A stretch of 64,000 nt of DNA from Gammaproteobacteria bacterium (GCA_045110495.1 JBGCGE010000045.1:10462-74461), one strand, 5' to 3'. Positions 1,734 to 64,000 are shown, counted from the stretch's first letter. Translations and numbers: made by a program. Notes: generated from the sequence alone by a model not told the origin.

Positions 1734-1930
1734 CTCTGTTGTTTATCTATCGCTTTATGGCTCTATACATCAAATGCTAACGAATTGATCGTCCCAAGGT
1801 TACTGCTCGATGTTGGTAATGTGTTTGGTTATAAACAGGGTAAGTTAATGGCTGGTATTGAGTACCAATACTGGCATAATAAGTTTGGAATTAAAGGTGT
1901 CACAGAATCAGTCGTACAAGCTCAACTCAT

Positions 1931-6558: not shown

Positions 6559-6575
6559 AAAATAGGGGAATTAAA

Positions 6576-7007
6576 TTGGAAAAATTTGCTGAGATACTTT
6601 TAGTAGAAGATAATCCTGGTGATGTACTTTTGACCAGGGAAGCTTTTTCCGAAGCTAAAATTAAGAATAACATCCATGTTGCGGCGGATGGAGAAGAAGC
6701 ACTGGCTTTCCTGAAAAGGCAAGAGGGTTATGAAAATGTAGCAACGCCAGATCTAATTCTGCTGGATCTTAATTTACCGAAACTGGATGGTCGTGAAGTA
6801 TTACAGGCAATTAAACGCGATGAAAATCTACGCCGTATACCTGTCGTTATTCTAACTAGTTCCAAAGCTGAACAAGATGTCCTGAAAACCTATGATCTAC
6901 ATGCAAATAGTTATCTCGTTAAACCTGTAGATTTGGAAAAGTTTGTAGAAGTGGTTAACGCGATTGAAAACTTCTGGTTTTCGGTTGTCGTATTGCCCGA
7001 AAAATAG
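6576..7007 (+). CDS. Single-domain response regulator (CheY-like receiver).
   Basis: ILLVEDNPGDV ... LILLDLNLPKLDG ... SYLVKP; 143 aa. Confidence 0.85.
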   Translation: MEKFAEILLVEDNPGDVLLTREAFSEAKIKNNIHVAADGEEALAFLKRQEGYENVATPDLILLDLNLPKLDGREVLQAIKRDENLRRIPVVILTSSKAEQDVLKTYDLHANSYLVKPVDLEKFVEVVNAIENFWFSVVVLPEK

Positions 7008-7112
7008 AAAAGCATAGGTGCAATGACTGGTCACTGAATATTTATTAAATAACGAAATCGGTAAAGATTATAGTAAGGAGTCCAGAGCCAGGTACATGAG
7101 TATTAATTTACG

Positions 7113-7143
7113 ATAAAAAGCGATTCACATATCGTTTTTAAAA
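7113..7143. terminator. Candidate bidirectional rho-independent terminator between two convergent genes.
   Basis: AAAAAGCGAT-tcacat-ATCGTTTTT: an imperfect hairpin flanked by an A-run on one side and a T-run on the other, between the response regulator (+) and the outer-membrane gene (-). Confidence 0.35.
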
Positions 7144-8508: not shown

Positions 8509-8603
8509 TATCTTCTCTCATCACTCTTTCTATTTGTGCTGGTCTAATTAGAATCTGATATTGGTTAGAAGTTGAATAAAAGAAGAGCTAAAACGTGCGC
8601 TAT

Positions 8604-8635
8604 ATACCAACGCAATAAACATTCCAGAAATTAAT
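8604..8635 (-). terminator. Rho-independent terminator downstream of the RR-PAS-GGDEF-EAL gene.
   Basis: Perfect 9-bp stem CATTCCAGA / TCTGGAATG with an 8-nt loop, followed on the minus strand by a U-rich tract (UUUAUUG). Confidence 0.5.
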
Positions 8636-8659
8636 ATCTGGAATGATTTATTTCAAATG

Positions 8660-10891
8660 TCAGGTTGTCTCGCTCTCTGTTACATCTAAAGTTTTTGCAG
8701 GATGACTATAAGAATTCTCTAGAAGCCAGGCAGTCATTTCACCAACGGTTACGGGTTTGTTTATGAAATAACCCTGGCCTATATCACAGCCAAAACTTTT
8801 CAATACTTCAATATGCTCAGCACTTTCAATGCCTTCAGCAACAACGCGGTAACCAAGGTTGTGCGCAAGATCGATAGTTGATTGAACGATAATTGGATCA
8901 CTTTCATTTTTAAGCATACTGACCACAAAAGATCGATCAATTTTAAGTTCATCTACAGGTAGTTTTTTCAGATAGGCTAATGATGAATATCCAGTTCCAA
9001 AATCATCAATGGAAAGATTAACTCCAAGCTTATCTAGCGAATGTAAAACGTTTAGCAGATTTTCTGAATCTTTCATAATGGCGCTTTCTGTAATCTCAAG
9101 CGTTAGAAAATGCGGTAAGATATCCCATTCTTTGAGTAAGCTATCCACAAGGATTGGCAAGCCTTTATCAGAAAGGTTTCTGGCAGAAAGGTTTACAGAT
9201 ATGTCTATTTCAACACCTTGTTTTTTCCACTCAGCTAATTGCTTAATAGCTGTACTCAGTGCCCATTTTGTAAGAGGTTGAATAAGACCGGAGCGTTCAG
9301 CGTGAATAATAAATTCATCTGGTGGAACGAAACCATATTCCTCATGCTCCCATCGCGCTAATGCTTCAACGCCACAAACTTGCTTCGTCTCCAAGTTGAT
9401 CTTTGGCTGGTAATGAAAAGTGAGCTGATCATTTTCGACAGCATTTCGTAACTCACCCGAAACGGCCAGACGGCGTAAACTATTATTATCTCTACTGCAA
9501 TCATAAAGTTGTACGCCCCCATGATTAGCTTTGGCCATGTACATCGCCACATCAGCACAGCGTAATAAAAGATCCGCTTGCTCTGCATGCTCCGGATAAA
9601 GAGCAATGCCTGCGCTCATTCCGACTTCCAGCATCATGCCCTCAATTTTGAAGTGTTCTTCCATGGCATTGAGCATACGATCTGATATTTCAATCGCGTT
9701 CTCAAGCGCACTGACAGCGGGTAACAAGACTGCAAATTCATCGCCGCCAAGTCGAGCGAGTGTATCTACTTCCCGGATCTGTTTTTTTAATCGAATGGCG
9801 ACTTGTTTTAATAACGTATCACCTGCTTGGTGTCCTAGTGTGTCATTGACTTCTTTGAAGTGATCAAGATCAATTAAAATCAAAGCAAAGGGTTCACCGC
9901 TGCGTTTCGCAACGTCAACCTCATGTTGCAATCGGTCATTTAGCAAAGAGCGATTAGGTAGATCAGTTAGTGTGTCATGTAACGCCAGATGCTGTACTAC
10001 TACCTGGTGTTCCTTTTCTGAGGTGAGATCTATCCAGGTACCGACATGCTCAAGTGGATAATTGTTATCATCATAAACTAGGGCAGACTCATCGTTGATC
10101 CATCGATATTCACCATCCTTATGCATGAAACGATATTCAACTCTGGATATTTCTGATGAAGAAAGCAGTGATATATGGTTTTTAAGTTGGTCTAGATCAT
10201 CTGGGTGAACCTTCGTTATCCAGAAATCTGGATCCTCGATAAATAACTTAGCTTCCCACCCCAATAGTCGGCGACTATTCTCGCTAACGTAATTGAATTC
10301 ACTAAATTTTGATGCGGAGCGACTGTAAATAACCGAAGGACTCGAAGACAACAGGTGTTGCATACGCTGCGAATTTGCCTGTAATGATCTGTCTGATACC
10401 CATTTCGCTGAAAGTGCATGCGCAAACTGAGTAAGCTCGTCTGGCTTAATGGGTTTCTGACAATACAATAATTTATCAACAGGTGGGACTTGCTGACCAA
10501 ATTCGCTGGGTTTGATATCCGAATAACCCGTTATAAAAACTATATTGAGATTAGCATCAATCTCACGGATCATTTTTGCCGTTTCGACTCCACTGATACC
10601 TGGCGGCATGCGCACATCCAGGAACGCGACTGAATAAGGTTGACCTTCATCAATTGCAGCACGTACTTTTTCTACAGCAATTTCTCCTTGTCGACAAAGA
10701 GTTACGTCGTAATTTGGTGAGGCATTGTTTTCAACAATTTCGGTATCCCCAAAAAGTTCGGCTTCTAGTGCTGATCGACTTTCTTTAGCTTGGATGACGC
10801 TTTCATTACCACCTAAGACAGAAGCATATTCATCCAGAATCGCTTGCTCATCATCAGCGATCAAAATTCGTGTTTGTAAATCTTTTGGCAT
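8660..10891 (-). CDS. Response regulator with receiver, PAS, GGDEF and EAL domains.
   Basis: N-terminal ILIADDEQAIL receiver with FLDVRMPPGISG. PAS region present. RLGGDEFAVLL (GGDEF motif). EALARW plus DDFGTGYSS (EAL domain). Confidence 0.85.
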   Translation of the reverse strand: MPKDLQTRILIADDEQAILDEYASVLGGNESVIQAKESRSALEAELFGDTEIVENNASPNYDVTLCRQGEIAVEKVRAAIDEGQPYSVAFLDVRMPPGISGVETAKMIREIDANLNIVFITGYSDIKPSEFGQQVPPVDKLLYCQKPIKPDELTQFAHALSAKWVSDRSLQANSQRMQHLLSSSPSVIYSRSASKFSEFNYVSENSRRLLGWEAKLFIEDPDFWITKVHPDDLDQLKNHISLLSSSEISRVEYRFMHKDGEYRWINDESALVYDDNNYPLEHVGTWIDLTSEKEHQVVVQHLALHDTLTDLPNRSLLNDRLQHEVDVAKRSGEPFALILIDLDHFKEVNDTLGHQAGDTLLKQVAIRLKKQIREVDTLARLGGDEFAVLLPAVSALENAIEISDRMLNAMEEHFKIEGMMLEVGMSAGIALYPEHAEQADLLLRCADVAMYMAKANHGGVQLYDCSRDNNSLRRLAVSGELRNAVENDQLTFHYQPKINLETKQVCGVEALARWEHEEYGFVPPDEFIIHAERSGLIQPLTKWALSTAIKQLAEWKKQGVEIDISVNLSARNLSDKGLPILVDSLLKEWDILPHFLTLEITESAIMKDSENLLNVLHSLDKLGVNLSIDDFGTGYSSLAYLKKLPVDELKIDRSFVVSMLKNESDPIIVQSTIDLAHNLGYRVVAEGIESAEHIEVLKSFGCDIGQGYFINKPVTVGEMTAWLLENSYSHPAKTLDVTESETT

Positions 10892-10901
10892 TTAGATTAT
10901 C

Positions 10902-12812
10902 TCAGGCTGTTGTTGCTTGTTGTATTTCTGCGACGGGTAGGCTGATAGTAAATATCGCCCCTTTATCTGGCCCATCACTTCGAGCATGGATATTTCCATC
11001 CATTTTAGACAAGGTGTTAGAACACCAGTGCAATCCCAGTCCACCTTTGGTTTTGTCTGTTTTAGTGGTGAAGCCACGCTGAAAGATTGAGTCTATGATT
11101 GAAGGATCTATACCTTTACCGTCATCTTCAAACTGTACTTCTACCATCGATTTATGATTAGGCTTCTCGATTAATTGTGCGCGGATTAATATCCGACCAT
11201 TATTTTTTATTGAGAGTTGTAACGATCGCATAGCATTTACCAGAATCTGATGAAAAACCTGAGTCAACATAAAATCATCAGTGAGAATGGGGGGAAGTTC
11301 ATCAATATTCGAATCAACTTTGATGACTGATTTATTACCAATGTCATCTGGTAAGAATCGAATCGCTTGCTCAATCACTCGAGAGAATTTTTCTGGTTTT
11401 AACTCTTGAGCAGTTCTGCTGAATTGTTCCTGTTCGGAAAGAATCTCTTCTACAAGACCCAATTGCACACCTAATACATCAACAGACGTTTTGATTTGAT
11501 CTTTCTTGGCTCTGGACTCTTCGAAACTGGCTTTTAAATATGACAGCATTTTACGGCCACGATCAGTTAGTTCAGTTTCTGTTGAGAGCTCACTAAAAGC
11601 CCTGTCAGTGTTGTTGTTTGATGATTCATCAAGTATTGCCCTCAGACTACCCAATCGCAGTACAAGAGGGCTTAGTTGATTACGCAAGTTGTGCATCACA
11701 CCTGCGGCCATTTCAGCAATGCCTGCTGAGTAAGATTGTTTTTGAAGATCATGTCTTGCTTCAGAAAGATGATCTAGCATATCGTCAAACTCCCGGCCAA
11801 GTATGCCGATTTCATCTCCCTGTTCTAAGTTGAGGCGTTGAGAGAGATCGCCCGAGTGACTAACACTCAAAGTATGTTCTGATAGTTTTTTTAACGGTGA
11901 GATTATGAAACGATGGAATAGCAGGCCCATCACAATAAGCATTAACACACTTGCGATTAACATACCCCAAAGAGCATACTTAATGGAATGTGTACCAAGT
12001 ACTGAAATACTGCGTTCCACATCTGCGCGTAAGAAAAGAATAGGGCTACCATTCTTATTTCGATACGTAGAATAAACTGATAACAGCTCATCGCTCACTT
12101 CATTTACGACAACACCGTTATCAATGAGATCTTCTGATTGGCTAATAAATATTGTTTGATCTTCTACTGTTAATTTGTTCGTATCCGCTGGCCATAGCTG
12201 GAAATTAACACGTGTCTTTTCATGTATTTTTTCTAATGCAACTTCATTGAGAAAACGTGCCATGATAAGTGTTCCATGGCCAGGCCCATTGGAATTATTA
12301 TCAAGAATAGAGCTAACCGCGATAAACATCGGGCCACTTTTGGTAAGTACAATTTGTGTCGTAATTTTAACTTCATCAGTCGCTTGTATATAAGGATGAT
12401 CAGGTTTGAGTTTTGATAGATAGAGATTGTCATTATGGATAACTTCTTCAGTTACAAAATCATACATCTTTGAGACGAGTAATTGTCCTGATCGATCATA
12501 GATACTGATGTAATTTACATTTAACGTTTCGAGTGAAGATAGCGCGAGGTTTTCTTCCAAAAAGTTATTGTCCTCACCCGCAGCGAAGATATATGTATCA
12601 TCCCAATGTGACCAATCACCGGTGGCATTCTCAAGTTCTTCCAGATTGGCATTTAATGCTTCATGGATTCGGGTCATATCTTTTTGTGCTTCTTGATGTT
12701 CCAGCTCGATAAAGCTTGAAAGAATGAGTCCACGCAAAATCCCATAGTTAGTCAATATTGACAATGCGACAATAAAGCAAAGGATGATTGAAATTTTAAT
12801 TGTTAATTTCAT
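10902..12812 (-). CDS. Membrane sensor histidine kinase, cognate to the downstream RR-GGDEF-EAL gene.
   Basis: N-terminal TM segment, periplasmic domain, second TM, HAMP-like linker, H-box region, C-terminal HATPase_c (DDGKGID ... GGLGLHWCSNTL). A 10-bp gap separates it from the response-regulator gene, suggesting an operon. Confidence 0.8.
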   Translation of the reverse strand: MKLTIKISIILCFIVALSILTNYGILRGLILSSFIELEHQEAQKDMTRIHEALNANLEELENATGDWSHWDDTYIFAAGEDNNFLEENLALSSLETLNVNYISIYDRSGQLLVSKMYDFVTEEVIHNDNLYLSKLKPDHPYIQATDEVKITTQIVLTKSGPMFIAVSSILDNNSNGPGHGTLIMARFLNEVALEKIHEKTRVNFQLWPADTNKLTVEDQTIFISQSEDLIDNGVVVNEVSDELLSVYSTYRNKNGSPILFLRADVERSISVLGTHSIKYALWGMLIASVLMLIVMGLLFHRFIISPLKKLSEHTLSVSHSGDLSQRLNLEQGDEIGILGREFDDMLDHLSEARHDLQKQSYSAGIAEMAAGVMHNLRNQLSPLVLRLGSLRAILDESSNNNTDRAFSELSTETELTDRGRKMLSYLKASFEESRAKKDQIKTSVDVLGVQLGLVEEILSEQEQFSRTAQELKPEKFSRVIEQAIRFLPDDIGNKSVIKVDSNIDELPPILTDDFMLTQVFHQILVNAMRSLQLSIKNNGRILIRAQLIEKPNHKSMVEVQFEDDGKGIDPSIIDSIFQRGFTTKTDKTKGGLGLHWCSNTLSKMDGNIHARSDGPDKGAIFTISLPVAEIQQATTA

Positions 12813-13873: not shown

Positions 13874-13950
13874 TGGCGCGCCCTGAAGGATTCGAACCTC
13901 CGACCACCTGGTTCGAAGCCAGGTACTCTATCCAGCTGAGCTAAGGGCGC
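13874..13950 (-). tRNA. tRNA-Arg with anticodon TCG as read by hand (77 nt, CCA encoded).
   Basis: Reverse complement is GCGCCCTTAGCTCAGCTGGATAGAGTACCTGGCTTCGAACCAGGTGGTCGGAGGTTCGAATCCTTCAGGGCGCGCCA. It folds as a cloverleaf: 7-bp acceptor stem, D-arm GCTC/GAGT, anticodon arm CCTGG-CTTCGAA-CCAGG, T-arm GGAGG-TTCGAAT-CCTTC. The backbone closely resembles enterobacterial tRNA-Arg(ACG). Confidence 0.8.
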
Positions 13951-22815: not shown

Positions 22816-23162
22816 TCAAACTACCTTTATAAATATTTATAAAAAAGCAAAGCATTCGAGTTACTGTAAAAAATATTCATGTTGAATAATTACAAGTGAA
22901 AAAAATAAAAACAGAGAATAAAGTGTAAATATAATAATGAATCTAAGGTAGTTGGACTGACTAAATATTCTGGGAAAGTGTATCGACGTAAAATATGCCG
23001 ATCCAATAGTGATTAAGTAAATTGGTAAGTATTTAATAAATACTCCATTGGAAATAATGATAGCGACAATCGGAATAAGTATGATCACAAACCATTCTTT
23101 GAAACGAGGATTCAAACTTCACGTACTCGTATAATTAAAAATTTATTCCCCATCTTTATTGA

Positions 23163-28450: not shown

Positions 28451-29161
28451 TTATGATGGCTCTGGCATTTTAGAACGAAGTAACTCTAGAAATATTTTGT
28501 CAGGTGTTCCTCCAGCTTTTCGTTGCTTTTCTACCATAGACCATGCATTGGCATATTCATCACGCCAGAAATATGCCGTTGACCATGAGCCATATACATA
28601 CTCTTTATTTGGTTCAATTTCTTCAGCCTTTTCATATAGCGATTCAGACTGTGAAATTAAATTTGATTTTTCCTCAATGGACAGTGTTTTGTTACTAAGA
28701 GCACATAGAACAGTAACTCGTGCTGCATCTGGATATATACCTTGAAATGCTGGTGGATTAAGCGACAGTGATTTTTACATCATTTTCATGGCTTCGCAGT
28801 ACTGCCCCTGGTCATGTAAAACGGAACCAAAACCAGCGAATGTTTCAGGATTTTTGGGATCAAGTAACCAAGCTTGGTTAAATCTACGCATAGCCATTCC
28901 CAAATCATCTTGTGAATAGAACTTGAAACCTTGTTCTACCCACACTTTACTTGCCTTTTCTCTAGAACCAAATCGTTCTGTAACATCAGAAATGAATTTC
29001 TCATCTCCTTTTTTTAATTCAGAATTCTTTGATCTATCCATTCCCCCATACATGGGCACTTCATCAATTCGTGTTTGATGGTTTGGTGAAGTAGCTAAAC
29101 ACCCAGTTAAAATAAGGGTAAAGAATAGTAGAACTATTTTCATAATATTTTTTCTCACCAT
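28451..29161 (-). pseudogene. TPR-repeat lipoprotein gene interrupted by an in-frame TAA at 28775-28777.
   Basis: ORF 28778-29161 (lipoprotein signal LTGC, TPR-like) ends at TAA. Another 107 stop-free codons follow in the same frame (KSLSLNPPAFQGIYPDAARVTVLCALSNK ... ELLRSKMPEPS). The stop falls inside a TPR consensus (YCEAMKMM*KSLSLNP), where Tyr, Gln, Lys or Glu is expected. Confidence 0.7.
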
Positions 29162-38630: not shown

Positions 38631-39311
38631 ATGATCGAAGATAAAATTATTCAATGCGACAACGTTAGCAAAGTTGTCGCAACAGCGGAAGGTCAACTGA
38701 CTATTCTTAATGACATTTCATTTGCTATTTCAAAAGGTGAAACAGTTGCTATCGTTGGCCAGTCAGGTTCTGGTAAAACGACATTGCTCAGTTTGCTTGC
38801 TGGTCTGGATCTGCCGAGCATGGGAAGCGTTCAGTTATTTGATCAACAACTGGAAGCGCTGGATGAAGATGGTCGGTCTGAGTTACGTAATCGTTCTATT
38901 GGTTTTGTCTTTCAGGCATTTCACTTGCTGCCTGGTTTTACCGCGCTTGAAAATGTGATGGTGCCGATCGAAATTCAGGACGATGTAGATCCGCAACAGC
39001 GCGCAACGCAGCTATTAAAAGAAGTTGGCATGTCACATCGACTGGATCATTTTCCCGCAACCTTGTCTGGTGGTGAACAACAGCGGGTTGCGATTGCACG
39101 CGCTTTTGCAACACAGCCACCGATGCTACTGGCAGATGAGCCAACCGGAAATCTTGATGCGGAAACCGGACAGACGCTTATTGATCTATTGTTCAAATTG
39201 AATGCAGAGCAGGGCACGACATTGATCCTGGTGACGCATGATGAAGCGTTGGCCTCCCGATGTTCTCGACGTTTTAGATTGGACAAAGGTCAGTTGCAGG
39301 TTATCGAATGA
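38631..39311 (+). CDS. ybbA: ABC transporter ATP-binding protein (YbbA/LolD-like).
   Basis: Walker A GQSGSGKTT, ABC signature LSGGEQQRVAIARA, Walker B LLADEPTGNLD. Confidence 0.85.
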   Translation: MIEDKIIQCDNVSKVVATAEGQLTILNDISFAISKGETVAIVGQSGSGKTTLLSLLAGLDLPSMGSVQLFDQQLEALDEDGRSELRNRSIGFVFQAFHLLPGFTALENVMVPIEIQDDVDPQQRATQLLKEVGMSHRLDHFPATLSGGEQQRVAIARAFATQPPMLLADEPTGNLDAETGQTLIDLLFKLNAEQGTTLILVTHDEALASRCSRRFRLDKGQLQVIE

Positions 39312-50558: not shown

Positions 50559-52862
50559 TTATAATTTCGCCTCTGACAGTTTTTTCTTATACTCCTTAAC
50601 AGACAGTGCAGACTCATAAGATTTAGTTGCTTCTTTTCTGTTTAAAGGGATGGAGCCTTCTTGATTTGAGGGTGGAACTAGATCGACAGGGTAGCAGGCA
50701 AGTTTTTGTTTTTTTGCGGATAGCGATGGCCGAAAGACCAACTCTCGTATATTTGTTTTCTTCGCTTGTACGACATGGCCTTGCTCGTCTGTATCGAGAT
50801 CCCACCACCATTTTTTTACTGGGTTGATTCGACCATTTCCAACCCAATCATCTAGCTTGGAAATCCATTTGTGCGTAAACGGTAAATGCATTGCTGACCA
50901 TAAAAAAGGGCGTTCAGCCATAACGCCTTCAATATTATAAGGGCAGGTTTTCATACATCGACCGCACATAGATCCAGCAGCATTTGTGATCCGATAACGT
51001 GCACATTTTTCAACATCCTGTTTCCAGATTTCATAAGCGTTGAACATGATCTTTTTACCAAATGAAATTGCAGAACAAGGGCATTCACGAGCGCATTTTT
51101 CACATTCGCCACAGAAATTCTGTAAACCAAAGTCTATTGGTGTATCAACAGCAAGTGGCATGTCTGTAGTAATGACACCGGATTTAAAACGTGGCCCAAC
51201 AAATGGATTGAGAACAAGTTCACCTATACGTGATAATTCACCTAAGCCTGAATTTAGAATAAGTGGAATGTGTAAGACATCTTGATCCATCACACTGTGT
51301 CCGCGAGCGGAATGACCTAAATTACGAATGTGCTGACAAACAATTCCTCCAAGTAATTGCGCGCGCATGTAGGCACGCATACTTTGTGCACCGGAGATCC
51401 AGTCATCTCCACTCGCACCTTCCATCGTTTCATAACCTTGATCAATTAGTATTGAAATAGCATATTTATGATAGGGCTTGATTTCGCTTCCGTCGGTGTC
51501 ATGCGAATACCAGGCATATTCAGGTATCTCACAAATGCCGACCATGTCAGCTCCCAGATAATGTAAAGCTGCCTTAACAGCTTGAGCATTCTTGACTGGA
51601 TCTTCAGTGTCTGGATGGACTGTTTCAGCCTCTTTTCCATATTGAAGCGGAACCATGCTACCGAGTCCTGGGATCATGGCATGCCCAAAAGGTGATTTTG
51701 TGATCATACGAAACCCATCAAGCTCCTTCTTCGCCTTGTCGCCCAAATCACCAATTGCTGCACGAATAAACATGTCATGCCTTTTGGGAATGCGTGGAAC
51801 GTTTGGTGTATCAATAAACGTGGTGGGTTCATCGACATGCTTCACAGTTTCCATTGGGTATGGGCCTAAATGATATGGGCGCTTTTTGAATGGTTCTCCA
51901 GCATAACCGGGACGTGTACCTCCGATGCCAGCCCACCACTTAAAATCACGTGCCTGTTTTGCTGTATTTGGCTTGATAGCGTCGTCAGATGCGAATGACA
52001 TATTTGTAGTTACAACAACAACGCCATATCGATCACTAATGAAAGGATTTTCAGGCTTGTCTGACTTCGAATTTTGTTCAGCGAGGCCACTTGCGACTGA
52101 TAGCATAGTTAAGTCAACATCACTTGCAGTCGGTGTATGTAAAGTCGCGGAATAACCCAGCATTCGTAGATAATTAGCCATTGTACCGCCGATTTCTGCG
52201 CCTCGAATTGCAGCACGCTGTGGCTGACAATCCATAATCCAGTTTGCGCCTGGTTCTTTTTGATCGGGATCGCGAGGGTATTCGATCAAAATCACCAATG
52301 CGTTTTGATGATCATTTTTTACTTGTTGATCATGTTTACGACTCCAGTTTTCGCGTCCTTCATCAACAACACTTTTGGCCATCGCATTTTCAGCAGCACC
52401 GGCTGCAAATTCCTGCTCTTGAGCCTCTTGTAAAGTCTCATTAATGATTGGCGATTCTAACCAGGCCTGATGAGGAATTGAACAGGTCGCGACCATACTG
52501 GCATCAAGATAATAACAAGCCGCTTTTAAGTGATCAGATCGCTCAGACAAACTATCAGGAATGGGAGCTAAATGAGGAGAGGTTTCCCCCAGGCGCATAC
52601 GATCCATTACATTAACGAAATCGCGCATCGCGTTACGAATAGAGAGTGGCGAATCGGGTGATTCAATCTGTAATGCCTCTAATGGCGTATTTGGTAAATT
52701 TCGGGCTTCAAGAGGAATTCTTTTTAAACGTTCAAGCGGAAAAGGGCCGGAAGATACAGGGCGGTTTTTGTGTGAAAACATTCGCATCATTAGATTTTCC
52801 CCTTGCAGTAGTTCCGAAACTGGCAACAGTATTCGTATCATTAATGACGATTTTATTAGCAA
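50559..52862 (-). CDS. Large cytoplasmic reductive-dehalogenase-family (RdhA-like, NpRdhA-type) corrinoid/iron-sulfur protein. True start probably at MMRMF (about 52790).
   Basis: C-terminal FCGECEKCARECP followed by C-x12-CGRCMKTCP, the two [4Fe-4S] motifs characteristic of RdhA and QueG-type enzymes. Internal duplication (LKAACYYLDASMVATCSIPHQAW and VKAALHYLGADMVGICEIPEYAW) as in long catabolic RdhAs. No TAT signal and no adjacent rdhB anchor gene. Confidence 0.55.
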   Translation of the reverse strand: MLIKSSLMIRILLPVSELLQGENLMMRMFSHKNRPVSSGPFPLERLKRIPLEARNLPNTPLEALQIESPDSPLSIRNAMRDFVNVMDRMRLGETSPHLAPIPDSLSERSDHLKAACYYLDASMVATCSIPHQAWLESPIINETLQEAQEQEFAAGAAENAMAKSVVDEGRENWSRKHDQQVKNDHQNALVILIEYPRDPDQKEPGANWIMDCQPQRAAIRGAEIGGTMANYLRMLGYSATLHTPTASDVDLTMLSVASGLAEQNSKSDKPENPFISDRYGVVVVTTNMSFASDDAIKPNTAKQARDFKWWAGIGGTRPGYAGEPFKKRPYHLGPYPMETVKHVDEPTTFIDTPNVPRIPKRHDMFIRAAIGDLGDKAKKELDGFRMITKSPFGHAMIPGLGSMVPLQYGKEAETVHPDTEDPVKNAQAVKAALHYLGADMVGICEIPEYAWYSHDTDGSEIKPYHKYAISILIDQGYETMEGASGDDWISGAQSMRAYMRAQLLGGIVCQHIRNLGHSARGHSVMDQDVLHIPLILNSGLGELSRIGELVLNPFVGPRFKSGVITTDMPLAVDTPIDFGLQNFCGECEKCARECPCSAISFGKKIMFNAYEIWKQDVEKCARYRITNAAGSMCGRCMKTCPYNIEGVMAERPFLWSAMHLPFTHKWISKLDDWVGNGRINPVKKWWWDLDTDEQGHVVQAKKTNIRELVFRPSLSAKKQKLACYPVDLVPPSNQEGSIPLNRKEATKSYESALSVKEYKKKLSEAKL

Positions 52863-52906: not shown

Positions 52907-52951
52907 TATCGACGTTAACATAATATTTCGATTATGTTAATAATATCGATA
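52907..52951. promoter_or_regulatory. Palindromic operator candidate in the divergent promoter region.
   Basis: Perfect inverted repeat TTAACATAAT-atttcg-ATTATGTTAA (52915-52940) nested inside an outer TATCGA ... TCGATA repeat. Confidence 0.5.
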
Positions 52952-53013
52952 TTATGCGGTAATACATTTTGGAATAATTTTTCGTTTCGGGCATCAATGT
53001 TATTAAATGAAGG

Positions 53014-54773: not shown

Positions 54774-55328
54774 ATGGAAAAAGTAGAGCCTGTTACGGTT
54801 GTTATCGCTCGCCGAGTTAAACCTGGAAAGGAAAGCGAATATGAAGATTGGGTGCGACATATAATATCCGTCGGTTCAACATTTCCTGGTCATTCCGGTG
54901 TCGATGTTTTAAAACCTTCATCTGGGACTGGTGGTGAATATATTTTAATTACACGTTTTGATAATTATGAAAACCAACGCGTCTGGGAAGAGTCGAATGA
55001 AAGAACCGAACTTCTGAAAGAACTTGATCCTATAACCGAAGGCGATGCACAGATAACAAAAGCTACAGGTTTAGAATCCTGGTTTTCTTTACCAGAAGTT
55101 CCAAAACAAGCCGTAGCAAACAGACATAAAATGACAGTTGTAATAGCAGTGTCGATCTTTTTCTTAGTCCTATTAGTTAACTTTCTATTTAAACCAATAC
55201 TGGATCAACTTCCGTATATTCTTAAAGTCGCGGTACTTTCTGTCATTCAGGTTGCCATGCTGTCTTACGTTGTTTTGCCAAGAGTTACGGCATTGTTAAA
55301 AAACTGGTTATATCCATCTCTTAAATAA
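54774..55328 (+). CDS. ABM (antibiotic-biosynthesis-monooxygenase-like) domain fused to a C-terminal two-TM segment.
   Basis: N-terminal ferredoxin-like ABM fold pattern (VTVVIARRVKPGKESEYEDW ... ILITRFDNYENQRVWEES) followed by hydrophobic helices. Confidence 0.45.
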   Translation: MEKVEPVTVVIARRVKPGKESEYEDWVRHIISVGSTFPGHSGVDVLKPSSGTGGEYILITRFDNYENQRVWEESNERTELLKELDPITEGDAQITKATGLESWFSLPEVPKQAVANRHKMTVVIAVSIFFLVLLVNFLFKPILDQLPYILKVAVLSVIQVAMLSYVVLPRVTALLKNWLYPSLK

Positions 55329-56144: not shown

Positions 56145-57440
56145 ATGTGCCTGGATCATAATTTAAGCTCATCATTCAGCTCTAAATATAGTTCGCTCTT
56201 GGTATTTAACTTACTAGTTGTCGTTATCTTCTTATTTATTCTGATAAGTGCAGCCTTAGCCGCTGACGATTTGCCTTCTGAAAAGATCATTAATAGTGAA
56301 AATATTTCTGAATACGAGAATTACCTTGATGAAACATTGATCGATTTGATCAAAAAAAACTACTTTACATTAGAAATAATTCCTACAGAGTCGTTTCCTG
56401 TACATCCTGAGTATGCTGCTGCAACTGAAAAAAACAGAGGTAAAACAAAACTAGGTACACTACCTGGCGAGATAAATGGTTATATCGCGGGCAGGCCTTT
56501 TCCTGAAACACCATCAACTGATGATCAACTTGCGGGAGATAAAATCGCATGGAATATGAGATATGCATTTGTTGGTGATGGAGGACGAATTGCTCCATTT
56601 TATTGGCAATATCGAAATATGCGAACCGATAAAATAGAGCGAGAATTATCTTTTGAAGCTAATAGTTTACGCTTTAAGCATCGGACAGTAACTTCTCCAA
56701 TACCTGACTTACCAAATAATCCTTCTGCAATTTTTAATGCACTTTATTTACGTGCGTTGGCACCACCAGATATTCGAAATACTCAGCTTTTAATTCACCG
56801 ACTGGAAGATGATACAAGCTCAGAAAGAGGTTGGATGTATATAGGCACCCAACGTCGTGTTCGTCGTATCCCAACTGGACAGAATACAGATTCATTCCTT
56901 GGTAGCGATATTATGATCGAAGATTTTATGGGTTATAACGGCCGAATAATGGATATGCAATGGACGTATCTCGGAACAAAAAAAGTGCTTATGCCATTCT
57001 ACAGGCATAACGAATTAGAATTTGAAAAACAAGAAAGTGATGGTTTTAACTTTATCGAATATGAAGGAAAAGGTGGTTGCTTTCCAAGGGTGAAGTGGCA
57101 GTTTCGTACTGCGTATGTTTTAGAAGTATCACCAAGATGGTCACAGCATCCACTTTCTAAGCGAGTTTATTATGTTGATGCGGAAACATTTATGCCAGCA
57201 TATGGCCGTTTATATGATCGCAGTAAAAAACTATGGAAATTAGCTATTGTGAGTTACTCGCATCCTGATCATCATTTGCCGATCAATAAAGACAGCTATG
57301 TTCCAATCTTTGATGGCGTGACGATGATTGATCTGCAAGCAAATCATTGCACAACGCTACAGGCAAGATCAGAAGCATCATCTAAAAAACTAACGGGCTT
57401 GGATTTCTCAGTTCAAACGTTACGTAGAAAAGGACGTTGA
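56145..57440 (+). CDS. DUF1329-family (LolA-like) secreted protein, orphan (no adjacent DUF1302 partner).
   Basis: N-terminal signal/anchor, then a pattern recalled from DUF1329 proteins (KKNYFTLEIIPTESFPVHPEYAAATEKNRGKTKL ... GYIAGRPFP); 431 aa. The family assignment is from memory of the domain pattern. Confidence 0.45.
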   Translation: MCLDHNLSSSFSSKYSSLLVFNLLVVVIFLFILISAALAADDLPSEKIINSENISEYENYLDETLIDLIKKNYFTLEIIPTESFPVHPEYAAATEKNRGKTKLGTLPGEINGYIAGRPFPETPSTDDQLAGDKIAWNMRYAFVGDGGRIAPFYWQYRNMRTDKIERELSFEANSLRFKHRTVTSPIPDLPNNPSAIFNALYLRALAPPDIRNTQLLIHRLEDDTSSERGWMYIGTQRRVRRIPTGQNTDSFLGSDIMIEDFMGYNGRIMDMQWTYLGTKKVLMPFYRHNELEFEKQESDGFNFIEYEGKGGCFPRVKWQFRTAYVLEVSPRWSQHPLSKRVYYVDAETFMPAYGRLYDRSKKLWKLAIVSYSHPDHHLPINKDSYVPIFDGVTMIDLQANHCTTLQARSEASSKKLTGLDFSVQTLRRKGR

Positions 57441-57497: not shown

Positions 57498-58790
57498 ATG
57501 TCCTCTTCGTTATTAATTATTTCTGGTTGGTTTTTATTAATCTCTACGTTTTTTTCTATTTTTAATGGTTTTTTTCCTTCAATTCTTCTTTCTATTTCCG
57601 GAATATTAAGTGCTATAGCGGCCATGATTTTGTTTCAGAAATTGAGCGGAATTCAACGTTTACAAGTATTCCTCTTAACAACAACAGGATTTTTATTGAT
57701 CCTGACAAGTGATGAAAATATTCCCTTTTTGATCAACAAAGCACTGACAGCAAACAGCGCTTTAATTGCACTTTTGATCAGTGTTGGGTTTCTGAAACTG
57801 ATCATAAAAGCCGGTGATGAAAAAGAGGCTTTGCCGACCGGTAATAAAGCCTTATGGAAAACAATGTTCGGATTACAATACTTTGCTGCGGTGATCAATC
57901 TTTCAGCTATTGTGTTATTTGGTGATCGCATAAAGCACAAAAACACATTGCATAAAGAGCAATTTATAATTCTGTCACGTAATTTTAGTGCTGCAAGTTA
58001 TTGGTCTCCTTTTTTTGCTGCAATGGGAGTGGCCTTGCTTTATTCCGGCGGAGCAGATTTTAATATTTTATTTTCTATCGGTGTGTGCGTATCTGCATGT
58101 GGATTATTGATCACGGGATTGCAATGTTCGCAGATCGTTAAAAAAGAGCAGAGAGAATTTAAAGGCTATCCGATGCACATCAATAGCCTTTTTTTGCCGA
58201 TTATTTTAAGTGCGCAGGTTTTGATCGGTCATAAAATATTTCCAGAAGTTTCCACATTGATCTTAGTTGCATGTATCGTGCTAATTACTGTAGTTGTAAA
58301 ACTTATTTTTGAACATTCAATACCCAAAGCATTTTCTACTATTAAAAAACATGTTGAGAATGGAATAACAAATTCAGCAAGTGAGTTATTATTATTTTTA
58401 TCAGCCGGTATTCTGGCGGTAGGAATCAATGCACTAATTTCATCAATGGATTATAAATTACCAATAGATCAATTTACTGGTGTTTATGCTTCACTCACCA
58501 TGATTGGAACTGTTTTGCTCGCTTTGATTGGCATCCACCCGGTGATCAGTATTAGTATCATTGGAAGCCTCCTCGTACCCCTACTTACAGATCCAAACCT
58601 GTTGGGTATGATGTTTTTATTCAGCTGGGGTGCCGGCGTGATTGCGAATCCCTTGTCTGGAATAAGTCTGGTTTTACAGTCACGTTATAACATCACCGGT
58701 TTTAATCTGATCAGAATCAATGCAACTTATATAATGGTCATGTTAATGTTATGTAGTGGCGTTTTAATCCTATATGATTACTTACATTGA
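57498..58790 (+). CDS. Polytopic inner-membrane transporter-like protein (about 12 TM segments), family unknown.
   Basis: 430 aa, hydrophobic throughout with an inverted-repeat-like arrangement. Located directly upstream of the XylR-family regulator. Confidence 0.4.
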   Translation: MSSSLLIISGWFLLISTFFSIFNGFFPSILLSISGILSAIAAMILFQKLSGIQRLQVFLLTTTGFLLILTSDENIPFLINKALTANSALIALLISVGFLKLIIKAGDEKEALPTGNKALWKTMFGLQYFAAVINLSAIVLFGDRIKHKNTLHKEQFIILSRNFSAASYWSPFFAAMGVALLYSGGADFNILFSIGVCVSACGLLITGLQCSQIVKKEQREFKGYPMHINSLFLPIILSAQVLIGHKIFPEVSTLILVACIVLITVVVKLIFEHSIPKAFSTIKKHVENGITNSASELLLFLSAGILAVGINALISSMDYKLPIDQFTGVYASLTMIGTVLLALIGIHPVISISIIGSLLVPLLTDPNLLGMMFLFSWGAGVIANPLSGISLVLQSRYNITGFNLIRINATYIMVMLMLCSGVLILYDYLH

Positions 58791-58866: not shown

Positions 58867-60537
58867 ATGAAAAAGAACGAATCCGCACCTTTTCCAAACC
58901 TTAATGATCTGAAAGAAGCTTTTCAGTTTGATGACGCCTCTGGTTGTGTCTGGCTTGAAGGTCAGCGAATGTTGTTGTTTCATGCCGCTGCTCTGGATGC
59001 GCTTCGCAATGAACTAATTGAGTCATTGGGTCTGGATCGTGCAAAAGGCGTTTTAATGCGAATGGGTTATCAATCTGGAAAACAAGATGCCCAATTAGCC
59101 AGAAAGCTTCGTCCAGGAGCTACTGATTGCGAACTTTTCGCAGTAGGACCACAACTTCATACTTTGGAAGGTATTGTTCGTGTAGAACCGATCAAACTTA
59201 CACTCGACATTGAAGCCGGAGAACATTATGGCGAGTTCAACTGGATCAATTCTTTTGAGGCCGAGCAACATTTGAATCGATATGGGATTCACTCCGAACC
59301 TGTCTGCTGGAATCAAATCGGTTACGCCTGTGGTTATTCCAGTGAGTTAATGGGGAAGCCGATCATTTATAAAGAAGTTGAATGTGTGGGTTGTGGCCAG
59401 GAAACTTGTCGGATCATCGGAAAGCCCGCAGAAGAGTGGGAAGATGCAGAACAACTCGCCGCCTATTTTTCACAAGGCTCACTGGCGGAAACACTGTTTA
59501 ATTTAAAAGACGAAGTTCAAAACTTGCGTAATGCGATCAAAAAAGAGGTTGAGCCACAAGATATTATTGGTCAGTCCCCGGCAATACGCGAAACACTTCA
59601 TATGCTGGAAAAAGCATCAAACACGAATGTCACCGTCTTAATGTTGGGTGAAACAGGGGTTGGTAAAGATACTTATGCTCGTCTGCTTCACAGAATGAAT
59701 GAAAATTCAGACAAACCTTTTGTGCAGGTTAATTGTTCTGCTTTGCCTGCGGATCTTGTCGAAGCTGAATTATTTGGTGTTGAAAAAGGTGCATATACGG
59801 GAGCTGAAAAATCACGCCCGGGACGTTTTGAAAGAGCGCATGGAGGTACTTTATTTCTGGACGAAATTGGGGAAATGAATATTGCTGTTCAGGCAAAATT
59901 ATTACGTGTTTTACAAACGGGTGAATTTGAACGTGTTGGAGATACACGCACACGAAAGGTAAAAGTCAGGTTAATTACGGCAACCAATCAACCATTAGAA
60001 GAGCGTGTAAATCAAGGTTTATTTAGAGCCGATCTTTTTTACAGGATAAATGTTTTCCCTATAAATATTCCGCCATTGAGAGAACGAAAAGAAGATATCC
60101 AGGGCCTGGTTGACAGGTTTGTTGGAATGTTTAATGCCGAATATGGAAAGAATGTAATGGGTATTGACGAGTCTCTTTTTGCGCAATTTCAGCAATATGA
60201 TTGGCCAGGAAATATTCGCGAGCTTGAAAACATAATCGAACGTGGGGTAATCCTGACTGACAATGGCAAATTAATTGATACCTCGTATATCAATCTTGAT
60301 CCAATAGTTTCTTCACCAGACGCTTCAACTTCAATAGAAAAAAATACCACATCATTTACAACTGCAACTCAAATATTAGCAGCAATGCAAGAGAATGAAG
60401 TTGGGCTGGAAGAAATAGAACAACAGTTGCTAGATACAGCCCTGGAACAGGCAGAAGGGAATATCTCGGCTGCCTCACGTGCACTAAATATTAGTTCTGC
60501 AAAGTACCGTTACAGAATACAAAAAAACAAAGAATAG
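58867..60537 (+). CDS. Sigma-54-dependent transcriptional activator of the XylR/DmpR family.
   Basis: N-terminal XylR-N/V4R-type effector-sensing domain ([28 protein letters not shown] ... ACGYSSE). AAA+ sigma-54 interaction domain ([36 protein letters not shown]-like). C-terminal helix-turn-helix domain. Confidence 0.85.
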
Positions 60538-60624
60538 ATTCTTTAGTAAGAAATTTATTCTGGCCAGATTCTTTTTATTAGCACCTCTTTTCTATAATTC
60601 AGGATAAGGCCAATTACAAATTAC

Positions 60625-60648
60625 CAATGTGATCATATGATCACATTG
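60625..60648. promoter_or_regulatory. Perfect 24-bp palindrome, candidate upstream activating sequence for the XylR/DmpR-like activator.
   Basis: CAATGTGATCATATGATCACATTG (perfect dyad), followed by a partial second copy TGATCATATGAT at 60652-60663. Lies about 85 bp upstream of the candidate -24/-12 promoter. Confidence 0.6.
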
Positions 60649-60728
60649 ATTTGATCATATGATTAATATTTAACTAACTATTTTTCCAATTTGCAAAAAA
60701 TACCCATAAATATCAATCAGATATGTTA

Positions 60729-60745
60729 TTGGCTTGGTTTGTGCT
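60729..60745 (+). promoter_or_regulatory. Candidate sigma-54 (-24/-12) promoter for the phenol hydroxylase operon.
   Basis: TTGGCTTGGTTTGTGCT: GG and GC separated by 10 nt as in the TGGCAC-N5-TTGC consensus. The match to the flanking bases is imperfect. Confidence 0.4.
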
Positions 60746-60774
60746 ATGTCTGATAGATAAATACACTTTTAAAA

Positions 60775-61053
60775 GTGAAGACAATAATAATAAACATGGC
60801 CGGCCCAGATCATAAATTTGTAAGAATCACGAACGTACGTGATGATAAATATATCGAATTCGATTTTTCATTCGAAGATCCTGAGATATTTGTTGAACTC
60901 ATTCTCCCTGTGGAAATGTTTCAAACATTCTGCGAAAAAAATAAAGTGCAATTCCTGGAAGTAGATAAAAATGTTTCTGAAGAGTATGAAAAACAGATCT
61001 GGCGACTGGGACAAGCTGGAAAAAAGTTTTTGAAAAATAAAAGAACACTATAG
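60775..61053 (+). CDS. dmpK: Phenol hydroxylase assembly component (DmpK-like). Start may be the GTG at 60775 or the ATG at 60796.
   Basis: Protein of about 90 aa (VRITNVRDDKYIEFDFSFEDPEIFVELILP) at the head of an SDIMO operon in dmpKLMNOP order. Confidence 0.6.
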   Translation: MKTIIINMAGPDHKFVRITNVRDDKYIEFDFSFEDPEIFVELILPVEMFQTFCEKNKVQFLEVDKNVSEEYEKQIWRLGQAGKKFLKNKRTL

Positions 61054-61064
61054 GTGAGAAGAAG

Positions 61065-62057
61065 ATGCATATAGATATAAAAAGCAAAAATGTAGAAACG
61101 ATCAGGAATACTTTTGATCATATAAAAGAACGTTTTGGTGACAAACCTGCGAGTCGCTATCAAGAAGCAACTTTCGATCTTCAACCAACCGCAAATTTTC
61201 ACTATCGCCCAACGTGGCAGCCACAATTTGAACTGTACGATGTAAGACGTACGGCTGTTGTGATGGAGGATTGGTACAAACTGACTGACCCTCGTCAATT
61301 TTATTACGCCTCTTACGTAATGAATCGTGCACGTTTACAAGAATCTGCAGATCAAAATTTCACGCTTATAGAAAAGCGGGGACTGCTTGATTTAATGCCT
61401 GATACTGTTAAGCAAAAAATATTGAATTACGTTCTACCACTGCGCCATTACTCGTGGGGTGGAAACATGAACAATACTCAAATTTGTGCAATGGGTTACG
61501 GAACAGCGATCACGGCGCCTGCGATGTTTCATGCGGCGGATCATTTAGGTATCGCACAATACATAACGCGCATTGGACTTTTGATCGGTGAAAACGAAGT
61601 CGAAATATTAGATCAATCAAAAAAAGATTGGGTTGAAAAACAACAATGGCAAGGGTTAAGAAAAGCAGTTGAAGATAGTTTTGTGCTAGAAGATTGGTTT
61701 GAATTATTTGTTGTTCAAAATTTTGTAATGGATGGATTAATACATCCATTATTTTTTAATCATTTTGAAGCACAAATTAATAAAGAAGGTGGAACCGCCG
61801 AATCCATGATGACTGGTTTTATGGCGGACTGGTATAAGGAAACAACTCGTTGGGTTGATGCTCAGCTCAAAGTGGCAGCATCCGAGTCGGAACAGAATAA
61901 TAAATTGATAACGGGTTGGATCAATAAATGGTTGAGTGTTTTGGAAGATGCACTTTTACCGCTTGCGACAGGTGCGCTCGATGATGGTGACGCCATTATG
62001 GCAGAAATTAAATCTGCATTGGTTAAACGTGCTGAAAAAATAAATATAAAACTTTAA
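61065..62057 (+). CDS. dmpL: Phenol hydroxylase beta subunit (DmpL-like).
   Basis: 330 aa non-catalytic hydroxylase subunit; operon position and size match group-1 SDIMO. Confidence 0.7.
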   Translation: MHIDIKSKNVETIRNTFDHIKERFGDKPASRYQEATFDLQPTANFHYRPTWQPQFELYDVRRTAVVMEDWYKLTDPRQFYYASYVMNRARLQESADQNFTLIEKRGLLDLMPDTVKQKILNYVLPLRHYSWGGNMNNTQICAMGYGTAITAPAMFHAADHLGIAQYITRIGLLIGENEVEILDQSKKDWVEKQQWQGLRKAVEDSFVLEDWFELFVVQNFVMDGLIHPLFFNHFEAQINKEGGTAESMMTGFMADWYKETTRWVDAQLKVAASESEQNNKLITGWINKWLSVLEDALLPLATGALDDGDAIMAEIKSALVKRAEKINIKL

Positions 62058-62071
62058 TTGAGAGAGACAAC

Positions 62072-62344
62072 ATGACCGAAAACGTATTTTTAGCACTACA
62101 AGCAAATGACGATGCCAGGCCTATTGTTGAAGCGATCGAGAAAGATAATCCTGATGTTGATGTTAGCTATCAACCTGCAATGATTCGTATGACAGCACCA
62201 GGAAAGTTAACCGTTTTACGTGAGACAGTTTCTGAACTGATCGGGCGAGACTGGGATCCGCAAGAACTTCACCTGGTACTTATTTCTTTTGGTGGAAATG
62301 TCGAAGAAGATGAAGACCAATTTACTATTTCATGGGCAAGCTAA
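62072..62344 (+). CDS. dmpM: Phenol hydroxylase regulatory/effector protein (MmoB/DmpM family).
   Basis: 90 aa; ALQANDDARPIVEAIEKDNPDVDVSYQPAMIRMTA ... ISFGGNVEEDEDQFTISW matches the DmpM pattern. Confidence 0.8.
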   Translation: MTENVFLALQANDDARPIVEAIEKDNPDVDVSYQPAMIRMTAPGKLTVLRETVSELIGRDWDPQELHLVLISFGGNVEEDEDQFTISWAS

Positions 62345-62389
62345 AGAATTAATTAATTTAAAAATGATCAATAGTTTGAGGAAAATATA

Positions 62390-63910
62390 ATGGCTAAAAG
62401 ATTAAACATGAGAGACCGTTACGACTACATGACGCGTCTTGGTTGGGACACAACATACCAACCAAAAGAAAAAGTTTTTCCTTATGATAAATATGAAGGA
62501 ATAAAGATTAAAGATTGGTCAGGTTGGGAAGATCCTTTTCGAATGACGATGGATAGCTATTGGAAATATCAGGGCGAAAAAGAAAAAAAGCTTTATGCAA
62601 TTTTAGATGCTTTTGCACAAAATAATGGACATGAAAATATTACGGATGCGAGTTATCTGAACGCGATAAAACTTTTCATACAAGGAATTACACCTGCTGA
62701 ATATTCGGCTCATCGCGGTTTTGCATTTACCGGAAGACATTTTGCTGGTGATGGTGCACGTGTAGCTTGCCAGATGCAGGCAATAGATGAACTGCGTCAT
62801 GCACAAACTCAAATTCATACTATCAGTCACTACAATAAACATTTTAGTGGGATGCACGATTTCACACATTGGGGTGATCGTATCTGGTACTTATCTGTTC
62901 CCAAATCATTTTTTGATGATGCGCGAACCGCGGGGCCATTTGAATTTATGGTGGCGATTGGGTTTTCATTTGAATATGTTTTAACCAATCTGTTGTTTGT
63001 TCCGTTTATGTCGGGAGCTGCGTATAACGGTGACATGGCAACAGTCACATTTGGCTTTTCTGCCCAATCTGATGAAGCCCGTCATATGACGCTAGGTTTA
63101 CAAGTTATCAAATTTATTTTGGAACAACACGAAGATAATTTGCCTATTGTTCAAAAATGGATCGATAAATGGGTGTGGCGCGGTTATAAAGTGTTAGGCC
63201 TTGTTTCAATGATGATGGATTACATGCTGCCAGAAAGTCCAATGTCATGGAAAGAATCGTGGGAGCTTTATTTTGAGGAGAACGCAGGCGCCTTATTTAA
63301 AGACCTTGAACGGTATGGAATAAAACAACCTTCTTACGTGGATATTTGTTCGAAAGAAAAAGAACATTTAAGCCATCAAGTATGGAGTATTTTTTACAAC
63401 CACACTGCTGCCGCCGCATTTCATACCACGCTACCAGATGAGAAAAAAATGGATTGGCTGTCAGAAAAATATCCAGATACGTTTGATAAATTTTACCGTC
63501 CAAGATATGACCTGTGGCGTGAACGAGAAGAAGCGGGCGAGCGGTATTACAGTAAAACGTTACCCATGCTGTGCCAGACTTGTCAGATACCGATGGGCTA
63601 CACAGAGAAAGATGATTTCACCCAGATTGCTTATCGCCATTCTGACTTTGGTGGTGATAGATACAATTTTTGTTCTGATCCTTGCAAAGCTATTTTTGAT
63701 GATGAACCCGAAAAATATGTTCAGGCCTGGATGCCAGTACAACAAATCTTCCAGGGTAATTGTGGCGGTGCTGATATCAAGGATGTATTGAAGTGGTACA
63801 AGCTTGAAGATGGTGTCGACAACATGGATTATCACGGATCATTAGATGAAAAGCGTTGGAAAGAAATGAAAGGTTTTGCAGATAATTCAAGTGATAAAAC
63901 GGGTACATAA
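62390..63910 (+). CDS. dmpN: Phenol hydroxylase alpha (diiron catalytic) subunit (DmpN-like).
   Basis: Diiron ligand motifs DELRHAQTQ and SDEARHMT. Collinear with DmpN throughout (YWKYQGEKEKKLYAILDAFAQNNGH ... FVPFMSGAAYNGDMATVTFGFSAQ). Confidence 0.9.
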   Translation: MAKRLNMRDRYDYMTRLGWDTTYQPKEKVFPYDKYEGIKIKDWSGWEDPFRMTMDSYWKYQGEKEKKLYAILDAFAQNNGHENITDASYLNAIKLFIQGITPAEYSAHRGFAFTGRHFAGDGARVACQMQAIDELRHAQTQIHTISHYNKHFSGMHDFTHWGDRIWYLSVPKSFFDDARTAGPFEFMVAIGFSFEYVLTNLLFVPFMSGAAYNGDMATVTFGFSAQSDEARHMTLGLQVIKFILEQHEDNLPIVQKWIDKWVWRGYKVLGLVSMMMDYMLPESPMSWKESWELYFEENAGALFKDLERYGIKQPSYVDICSKEKEHLSHQVWSIFYNHTAAAAFHTTLPDEKKMDWLSEKYPDTFDKFYRPRYDLWREREEAGERYYSKTLPMLCQTCQIPMGYTEKDDFTQIAYRHSDFGGDRYNFCSDPCKAIFDDEPEKYVQAWMPVQQIFQGNCGGADIKDVLKWYKLEDGVDNMDYHGSLDEKRWKEMKGFADNSSDKTGT

Positions 63911-63951
63911 TTCTTATACTTATGATCAAAAAAATAACAAGAGGAAATAAT

Positions 63952-64000
63952 TATGCCTGTTAAATCTATTGGAGAATATTCATTTCCAGCCATGGATAGT
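63952..64000 (+). CDS. Start of the next operon gene (probably a DmpO-like gamma subunit); 3' end outside the window.
   Basis: ATG with a GAGGAA ribosome-binding site. MPVKSIGEYSFPAMDS runs off the end of the window, at the position of dmpO in dmpKLMNOP. Confidence 0.3.

Follow-up and report, generated by a model that had tools for sequence, protein, structure and literature searches.

A predicted DmpR-regulated phenol hydroxylase operon with closely spaced upstream activating sites in an uncultured marine gammaproteobacterium

The right-hand end of a 64,000-nucleotide stretch from a Gammaproteobacteria bacterium genome (GCA_045110495.1, JBGCGE010000045.1:10462-74461; hereafter the window, with positions counted from its first letter) encodes a sigma-54 enhancer-binding activator of the DmpR/XylR type, followed in the same direction by genes resembling dmpK, dmpL, dmpM and dmpN and by the start of a dmpO-like gene (Table 1). 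Genes were called from a list of open reading frames (ORFs) combined with Pfam and NCBIfam profile searches, and the activator gene and the operon all lie on the plus strand. A preliminary description, made from the sequence alone, had proposed a dmpKLMN(O) operon for a group-1 soluble diiron monooxygenase (SDIMO) in a low-GC gammaproteobacterium, and both points are borne out: the corresponding Pfam families occur in the order K, L, M, N with the beginning of dmpO behind them, and the G+C content (GC) is about 40%. The operon had also been called complete, which needs correction, because the window ends at codon 16 of dmpO and the operon is therefore incomplete in the data. These first 16 codons encode MPVKSIGEYSFPAMDS, the counterpart in the related locus L001 being MPVTAIGEYAFSHNDS. 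The start of dmpK was placed by the ORF finder at the GTG at 60775; the ATG at 60797 lines up with the start in L001 and, judging from this alignment, is the more likely initiation codon.

Table 1. Predicted features of the locus and their positions in the window
Feature	Position	Strand	Basis or remark
430-aa membrane protein, elevator-type (IT-superfamily) transporter fold	57498-58790	+	AlphaFold2 and Foldseek
Activator, DmpR/XylR-type sigma-54 enhancer-binding protein, 556 aa	58867-60537	+	Pfam XylR_N, V4R, Sigma54_activat, AAA_lid_14, HTH_8
UAS-A, distal upstream activating site, perfect 24-bp palindrome CAATGTGATCATATGATCACATTG, core GTGATCATATGATCAC, centre about -119	60625-60648	none	Palindrome scan, consensus match
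UAS-B, proximal upstream activating site, imperfect inverted repeat TTGATCATATGATTAA, centre about -97	60651-60666	none	15/16 consensus match
IHF-like site TATCAATCAGATA, one mismatch to WATCARNNNNTTR, centre about -39	60711-60723	+	Pattern match in a spacer of 79% A+T
Sigma-54 -24/-12 promoter TGGCTT-N5-GTGCT, TGGCTTGGTTTGTGC at 60730-60744	60730-60745	+	Predicted start near 60756
dmpK-like assembly/auxiliary subunit	60797 (ATG) or 60775 (GTG) to 61053	+	Pfam Phenol_hyd_sub PF06099, E 3.9e-20
dmpL-like hydroxylase beta subunit	61065-62057	+	Pfam Phenol_Hydrox PF02332, E 1e-61
dmpM-like cofactorless effector protein	62072-62344	+	Pfam MmoB_DmpM PF02406, E 1.4e-30
dmpN-like diiron hydroxylase alpha subunit	62390-63910	+	Pfam Phenol_Hydrox PF02332 and YHS
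dmpO-like gamma subunit, 5' end, 16 codons, cut by the window end	63953-64000	+	Comparison with L001

Among all PDB sequences, the alpha subunit is matched best by PHN, the phenol hydroxylase of Pseudomonas stutzeri OX1 (E 1.2e-244, 816 bits, residues 3-497), with the alpha subunits of ToMO and T4MO at about 135 bits (E 1e-38) and that of methane monooxygenase (sMMO) at about 63 bits (E 1e-16). Since PHN scores far above the others, the protein groups, as had been anticipated, with the phenol hydroxylases and not with the enzymes for alkenes, propane or methane. The six diiron ligands of PHN all have their counterparts, in E104, E134, H137, E195, E229 and H232; the diiron motifs read DELRH (residues 133-137) and DEARH (residues 228-232), with E104 and E195 as the remaining PHN ligands, and the four C-terminal cysteines that make up the Cys4 site are conserved as well. 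The gene order K-L-M-N-O comes with a DmpK-type auxiliary protein and an MmoB/DmpM effector and, in the profile search, without a Rieske ferredoxin. When the annotated dmp operon of a P. veronii plasmid (L086) is taken for comparison, the identities are 66.5% for N, 46.5% for L, 47.8% for M and 32.5% for K. On sequence grounds, the operon is predicted to encode a three-component diiron phenol hydroxylase of SDIMO group 1 and of the Dmp/PH type. The OX1 enzyme (PHK-L-M-N-O-P; PDB 2INN, 2INP and 3U52) provides the closest solved alpha subunit, although its organism and regulatory setting differ and the window protein is known from sequence.

The regulator carries the Pfam families PF06505, PF02830, PF00158, PF25601 and PF02954, corresponding to an XylR_N and V4R sensor, an AAA+ domain and a C-terminal Fis-type helix-turn-helix. 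Residues 19-471 align with phenol-bound DmpR (PDB 6IY8; E 1.1e-160), further alignments are obtained with the sensor domains of PoxR and MopR, and the protein is 46% identical to DmpR of the P. veronii dmp plasmid; with the NCBIfam MobR model it scores 608 bits, under the cutoff of 999. The full domain set and the match to the DmpR structure thus uphold the initial assignment to the XylR/DmpR-type sigma-54 activators. The Walker A motif GETGVGK is found at residue 261, the sigma-54 contact loop, as GAYTGA, at residue 308 and the Walker B motif LFLDE at residue 329. The GAYTGA form, in place of GAFTGA, was considered as an oddity that might co-vary with the unusual GTGC at -12; this idea was rejected, as GAYTGA, carried by 77 of about 98 related regulators, is the majority state in the family and shows no tie to the -12 sequence. 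In the sensor domain, H98 and W126 align with the His and Trp by which DmpR positions the hydroxyl of phenol, and C147, E170, C173 and C181 align with the zinc-binding Cys/Glu/Cys/Cys of DmpR. The residue corresponding to this His is a Tyr in the xylene-sensing XylR (PMC7264223). Based on these alignments, the effector of the regulator is likely to be phenolic.

Two candidate upstream activating sites (UAS) and a sigma-54 promoter lie between the regulator gene and the operon. UAS-A exceeds every other perfect palindrome of the window in length; when the whole window was shuffled 200 times under a first-order Markov model, only 2 of the shuffles reached 24 bp. Next in length are perfect palindromes at 22826-22843 (18 bp), 28865-28880 (16 bp) and 52940-52955 (16 bp), all of which fall within the range of the shuffled sequences. 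The preliminary description had named a single palindromic UAS; the perfect 24-bp palindrome stands, but the second, imperfect site, whose centre is 22 bp from that of UAS-A, had not been called out. No paper was found for the exact string TTGATCAATTGATCAA in a literature search, and the UAS consensus was therefore derived from related loci together with the canonical dmp locus. Scoring of the regions upstream of sigma-54 promoters in related loci, which had been fetched with the alpha subunit, gave the 16-bp consensus TTGATCAWWTGATCAA, recovered in about 50 loci and matched by UAS-A at 14 and by UAS-B at 15 of the 16 positions. With up to two mismatches, this consensus occurs three times in the 64 kb, against 0.33 occurrences expected, and two of the three are UAS-A and UAS-B. 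The third match, TTGATCTATTGTTCAA (39181-39196, two mismatches), lies inside or beside an ORF far from the operon and is probably due to chance.

When the window is aligned with the related loci L081, L083, L001 and L002, both UAS positions and the promoter are conserved column for column, and the left half of UAS-B, TGATCA, is invariant in all five sequences. Each of the four relatives has an imperfect repeat as its distal site, and the perfect 24-bp palindrome occurs in the window only; the perfect symmetry is therefore peculiar to this genome and does not reflect a conserved requirement. A UAS spacing of 29-31 bp is found in 66 of the 85 loci with two scorable sites. The 22-bp spacing at -119/-97, which is common to the window, L083, L001 and L002, departs from the usual value of about 30 bp (three helical turns) and is a geometric variant, not another mechanism. 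The palindrome is hence best described as the activator's predicted distal binding site, and the proposal that it serves as an upstream activating sequence before a sigma-54 promoter has gained a family consensus, a second copy and conserved positions.

It could be argued that the palindrome, which lies 87 bp past the stop codon of the regulator gene, is instead the terminator of that gene or an operator bound by another protein, a repressor. On the minus strand, a pattern scan does pick it out as a terminator-like hairpin, and the repressors AphS and PhcS are known in dmp-like intergenic regions (PMC3063778). However, no run of T follows the stem on the plus strand, the stem is A+T-rich, with G-C pairs at 4 of its 12 positions, and the relatives keep the positions of the sites and not the hairpin potential. 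A terminator was rejected on these three grounds, and conserved positions without conserved hairpin potential favour a protein-binding site over an RNA structure. As the core also fits the family UAS consensus and a second copy is found 22 bp off, we regard this explanation, operator included, as scarcely credible and retain the palindrome as a predicted site of the activator.

The -24/-12 element begins 81 bp past the end of the palindrome, just before the first operon gene, and the GG at -24 and the GC at -12 of TGGCTTGGTTTGTGC are 10 nt apart. It aligns column for column with stronger promoters of the TGGCAT-N5-GTGCA type in L081, L083, L001 and L002, and the distance from promoter to dmpL is the same as in most related gammaproteobacterial loci with a DmpR homologue. 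In L081, the sequence aligned to the IHF-like site, TATCAGACAGTTA, fits the IHF consensus, and these matches make 60711-60723 a candidate IHF site.

Because the window cuts the operon, the reductase and the ring-cleavage dioxygenase are deduced from relatives only. Of the related loci, 126 extend 6 kb or more past N; the O gene is present in all 126 and a reductase gene in 122, and a catechol 2,3-dioxygenase gene lies within 6 kb of N in 105. In L001, N is followed by the O gene and then by genes for a reductase (Fer2-FAD-NAD), a 2Fe-2S ferredoxin and catechol 2,3-dioxygenase, as confirmed by Pfam, and all four downstream genes are present in L001-L005 and L087. By analogy, a dmpP-type reductase and a catechol dioxygenase would be encoded past the right end of the window.

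We consider it highly likely that these genes and sites make up an operon that is induced by phenol, depends on sigma-54 and encodes a three-component diiron phenol hydroxylase. The model builds on the gene identities, the conserved ligand residues and the sites with their conserved positions, which were read directly; binding, the identity of the effector, the role of IHF, the downstream genes and activity enter it as predictions. Dimers of the activator would bind the inverted repeats UAS-A and UAS-B, and binding of a phenolic effector by the N-terminal V4R domain would relieve the repression of the AAA+ domain. The activator would then multimerise across both UAS and contact sigma-54 RNA polymerase at the promoter over the A+T-rich, probably IHF-bent spacer, after which ATP hydrolysis would open the promoter. 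The transcript would run through dmpK, L, M, N and O and, past the window, very probably through dmpP and the genes for a ferredoxin and catechol 2,3-dioxygenase. Phenol(s) would be turned by the enzyme into catechol(s), feeding meta-cleavage. The system is a predicted DmpR-regulated multicomponent phenol hydroxylase of a familiar type, residing in an uncultured marine gammaproteobacterium, and its variations are small, namely the 22-bp UAS spacing, the co-directional regulator and the linked transporter-like gene.

Several observations weigh against this interpretation. The loose -24/-12 pattern has six matches against 5.8 expected, so that the promoter match is weak and without significance alone, and the IHF-like site carries one mismatch and lies unusually near the promoter. 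The window, which ends at codon 16 of dmpO, shows no rpoN gene and no gene for a reductase or for ring cleavage. In the pocket of the regulator, four positions are unlike DmpR (Y90C, V113L, F122H and F170Y, in our own mapping of the 6IY8 alignment), and the effector may therefore be other than phenol itself. Finally, the alpha subunit shares 65.5% identity with the hydroxylase encoded on the Burkholderia vietnamiensis G4 plasmid, a toluene 2-monooxygenase; since the G4 plasmid enzyme belongs to the same alpha family, the substrate range is not fixed by homology. The last two points are also those that would speak for a mainly benzene/toluene ortho-monooxygenase (TOM/T2MO/Tbm type) whose regulator senses non-phenolic aromatics, the identity to the G4 enzyme being about equal to that to DmpN. 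Such an enzyme is, however, hard to reconcile with a regulator that retains the His contacting the phenol hydroxyl, a Tyr in the hydrocarbon-sensing XylR, and with the phenol hydroxylase of P. stutzeri OX1 as the closest structural relative by sequence. In addition, the nearest loci run on into ferredoxin and catechol 2,3-dioxygenase genes, as does dmp. We therefore think an ortho-monooxygenase very unlikely and favour a phenol hydroxylase under the control of a phenol-sensing activator.

Searches for exact copies of N, M and the 430-aa protein gave no match, and the closest relatives share up to 84% identity in the genome scan and up to 82% in the metagenome scan. L001, L002 and L083, which stem from metagenome-assembled genomes of uncultured Gammaproteobacteria and a metagenome contig, encode alpha subunits that are 83-84% and regulators that are 73-75% identical to those of the window. 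In these three loci and in L081, a transporter-like gene is followed by the regulator gene, the regulator gene is co-directional with the operon, and the UAS and promoter occupy the same aligned columns, all as in the window; unlike the window, L083 has about 6 kb of other genes between the regulator gene and dmpK. The co-directional arrangement sets this clade apart from most Marinobacter and Pseudomonas loci, in which the regulator gene is divergent. In the Arcobacter-type Campylobacterota loci L011, L013, L018, L058, L062 and L072, alpha subunits 67-76% identical to that of the window are found without a DmpR homologue or a sigma-54 promoter, and a conserved palindrome of the form TTGCGAATAATTYGCG lies about 330 bp before dmpL, suggesting that the same enzyme is placed there under a different regulator.

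A close counterpart is the dmpR/dmpKLMNOP-QB system of Pseudomonas sp. CF600, represented here by the near-canonical locus on the P. veronii plasmid. It shares with the window the K-L-M-N-O order, the regulator architecture, the sigma-54 promoter and two UAS that are inverted repeats with a common consensus; to its IHF-type site corresponds the candidate site in the window. The canonical dmp promoter, TGGC-N7-TTGC, and IHF site, AAACAAT-N3-CTTG, agree with the published description (PMC5175336). In the canonical dmp promoter Po, the UAS are centred at -162 and -132 and are thus 30 bp apart, whereas the centres at -119 and -97 in the window are 22 bp apart. Further differences from the CF600-type system are the regulator gene, which is upstream and co-directional and not divergent, the weaker -24/-12 match, the transporter-like gene before the regulator and the uncultured gammaproteobacterial host of about 40% GC. 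The XylR/Pu system of the TOL plasmid pWW0 belongs to the same regulator family and follows the same promoter logic, with two UAS, a -24/-12 element and an IHF site (PMC3900584), the last being a candidate in the window. XylR, in contrast, has an effector-contacting Tyr where the window protein has a His, and Pu serves the xylene upper pathway and not phenol hydroxylase genes.

The gene before the regulator encodes a membrane protein of 430 residues that matches no Pfam or NCBIfam family. Its AlphaFold2 model has a pLDDT of 90.7, and the top Foldseek matches in the PDB are TRAP DctM-type proteins, VcINDY, YdaH and ArsB, with TM-scores of about 0.5. A homologue adjoins the DmpR-like gene on its upstream side in L001 (4970-6286), L002, L081 (1207-2499) and L083 (10001-11293). 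A general tie of this transporter-like family to aromatic regulators was considered and rejected, as the homologues of Marinobacterium and Vibrio have unrelated neighbours and the link is confined to the close subclade. Within that subclade, the gene is a conserved upstream partner of the regulator gene, with a putative role in transport. Further upstream, a DUF1329 (LolA-like) gene is found at 56145-57440 on the plus strand, and in 49 of 162 related loci a homologue occurs no more than 10 kb from the alpha gene. These cases come from several lineages, mostly Marinobacter, with the gene beyond dmpR, where the P. veronii dmp plasmid has a YCF48-related gene. The recurrence near alpha genes suggests that the DUF1329 neighbour may not be unrelated to the operon. 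The earlier view of an operon embedded among unrelated accessory genes is thus not sustained, both the 430-aa protein and DUF1329 being linked to such clusters elsewhere.

The same description had placed the operon in a catabolic island. A recent acquisition of the cluster would be in line with the accessory genes just upstream (ApbA, LysE, ABM, sulfotransferase and DUF1329), with the differing neighbourhoods of the transporter-regulator-operon block in L001, L002 and L083, and with the occurrence of related alpha subunits on plasmids and across phyla. The composition of the region, however, is ordinary: GC is flat along the window, the operon genes have GC values of 0.39-0.42, against 0.403 +/- 0.031 in 40 other window genes, and values at third codon positions (GC3) of 0.30-0.34, against 0.328 +/- 0.051 in the same 40, and their codon usage is indistinguishable from that of other window genes (p ~0.07). 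No integrase or transposase was found among the scanned ORFs left of the operon, in a scan that was not exhaustive and with the right border outside the window, and the sole tRNA gene in the window (13874-13950) does not flank the operon. The scanned ORFs belong to housekeeping or signalling genes, and those for IspA, YciO, TrpRS and ScpA/B, all housekeeping, are located 8-13 kb upstream. Moreover, L083 has two more of the window's neighbours, an ABM-domain protein and a Fer4 protein of about 750 residues, which points to lineage-level conservation. With composition and codon use like those of the rest of the window, housekeeping genes nearby, no mobility genes in the scanned ORFs and the right flank beyond the window, the island is left without support, and we judge a recent acquisition unlikely. 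The ABM-domain protein has about 185 residues (window 54774-55328, plus strand; L083 15500-16060, plus strand) and the other neighbour is a 4Fe-4S protein (window 50559-52862, minus strand; L083 16169-18397, minus strand); the order of the two genes differs between the loci. At the far left of the window (132-12812), a dense signalling block encodes two GGDEF-EAL proteins and histidine kinases of the CHASE and CHASE4 types with PAS domains.

A more speculative proposal, which we regard as rather doubtful, concerns an uncultured marine gammaproteobacterial clade as a whole. In these bacteria, DmpR may work from a compact enhancer, with sites 22 bp apart and about 35-40 bp nearer the promoter than in Po, and the regulator may be co-transcribed with an elevator-type transporter that imports, or helps to sense, an anionic or phenolic substrate, so that the system would respond to a compound other than plain phenol. 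The locus leaves current understanding unchallenged. It gives a catabolic and regulatory system that has been studied very thoroughly a further example, chromosomal, low in GC and from an uncultured marine bacterium, and it offers a natural UAS of high symmetry that could suit biosensor design. For specialists, the points of interest are the clade-specific 22-bp spacing of the UAS and the conserved, unannotated transporter-like gene before the regulator.

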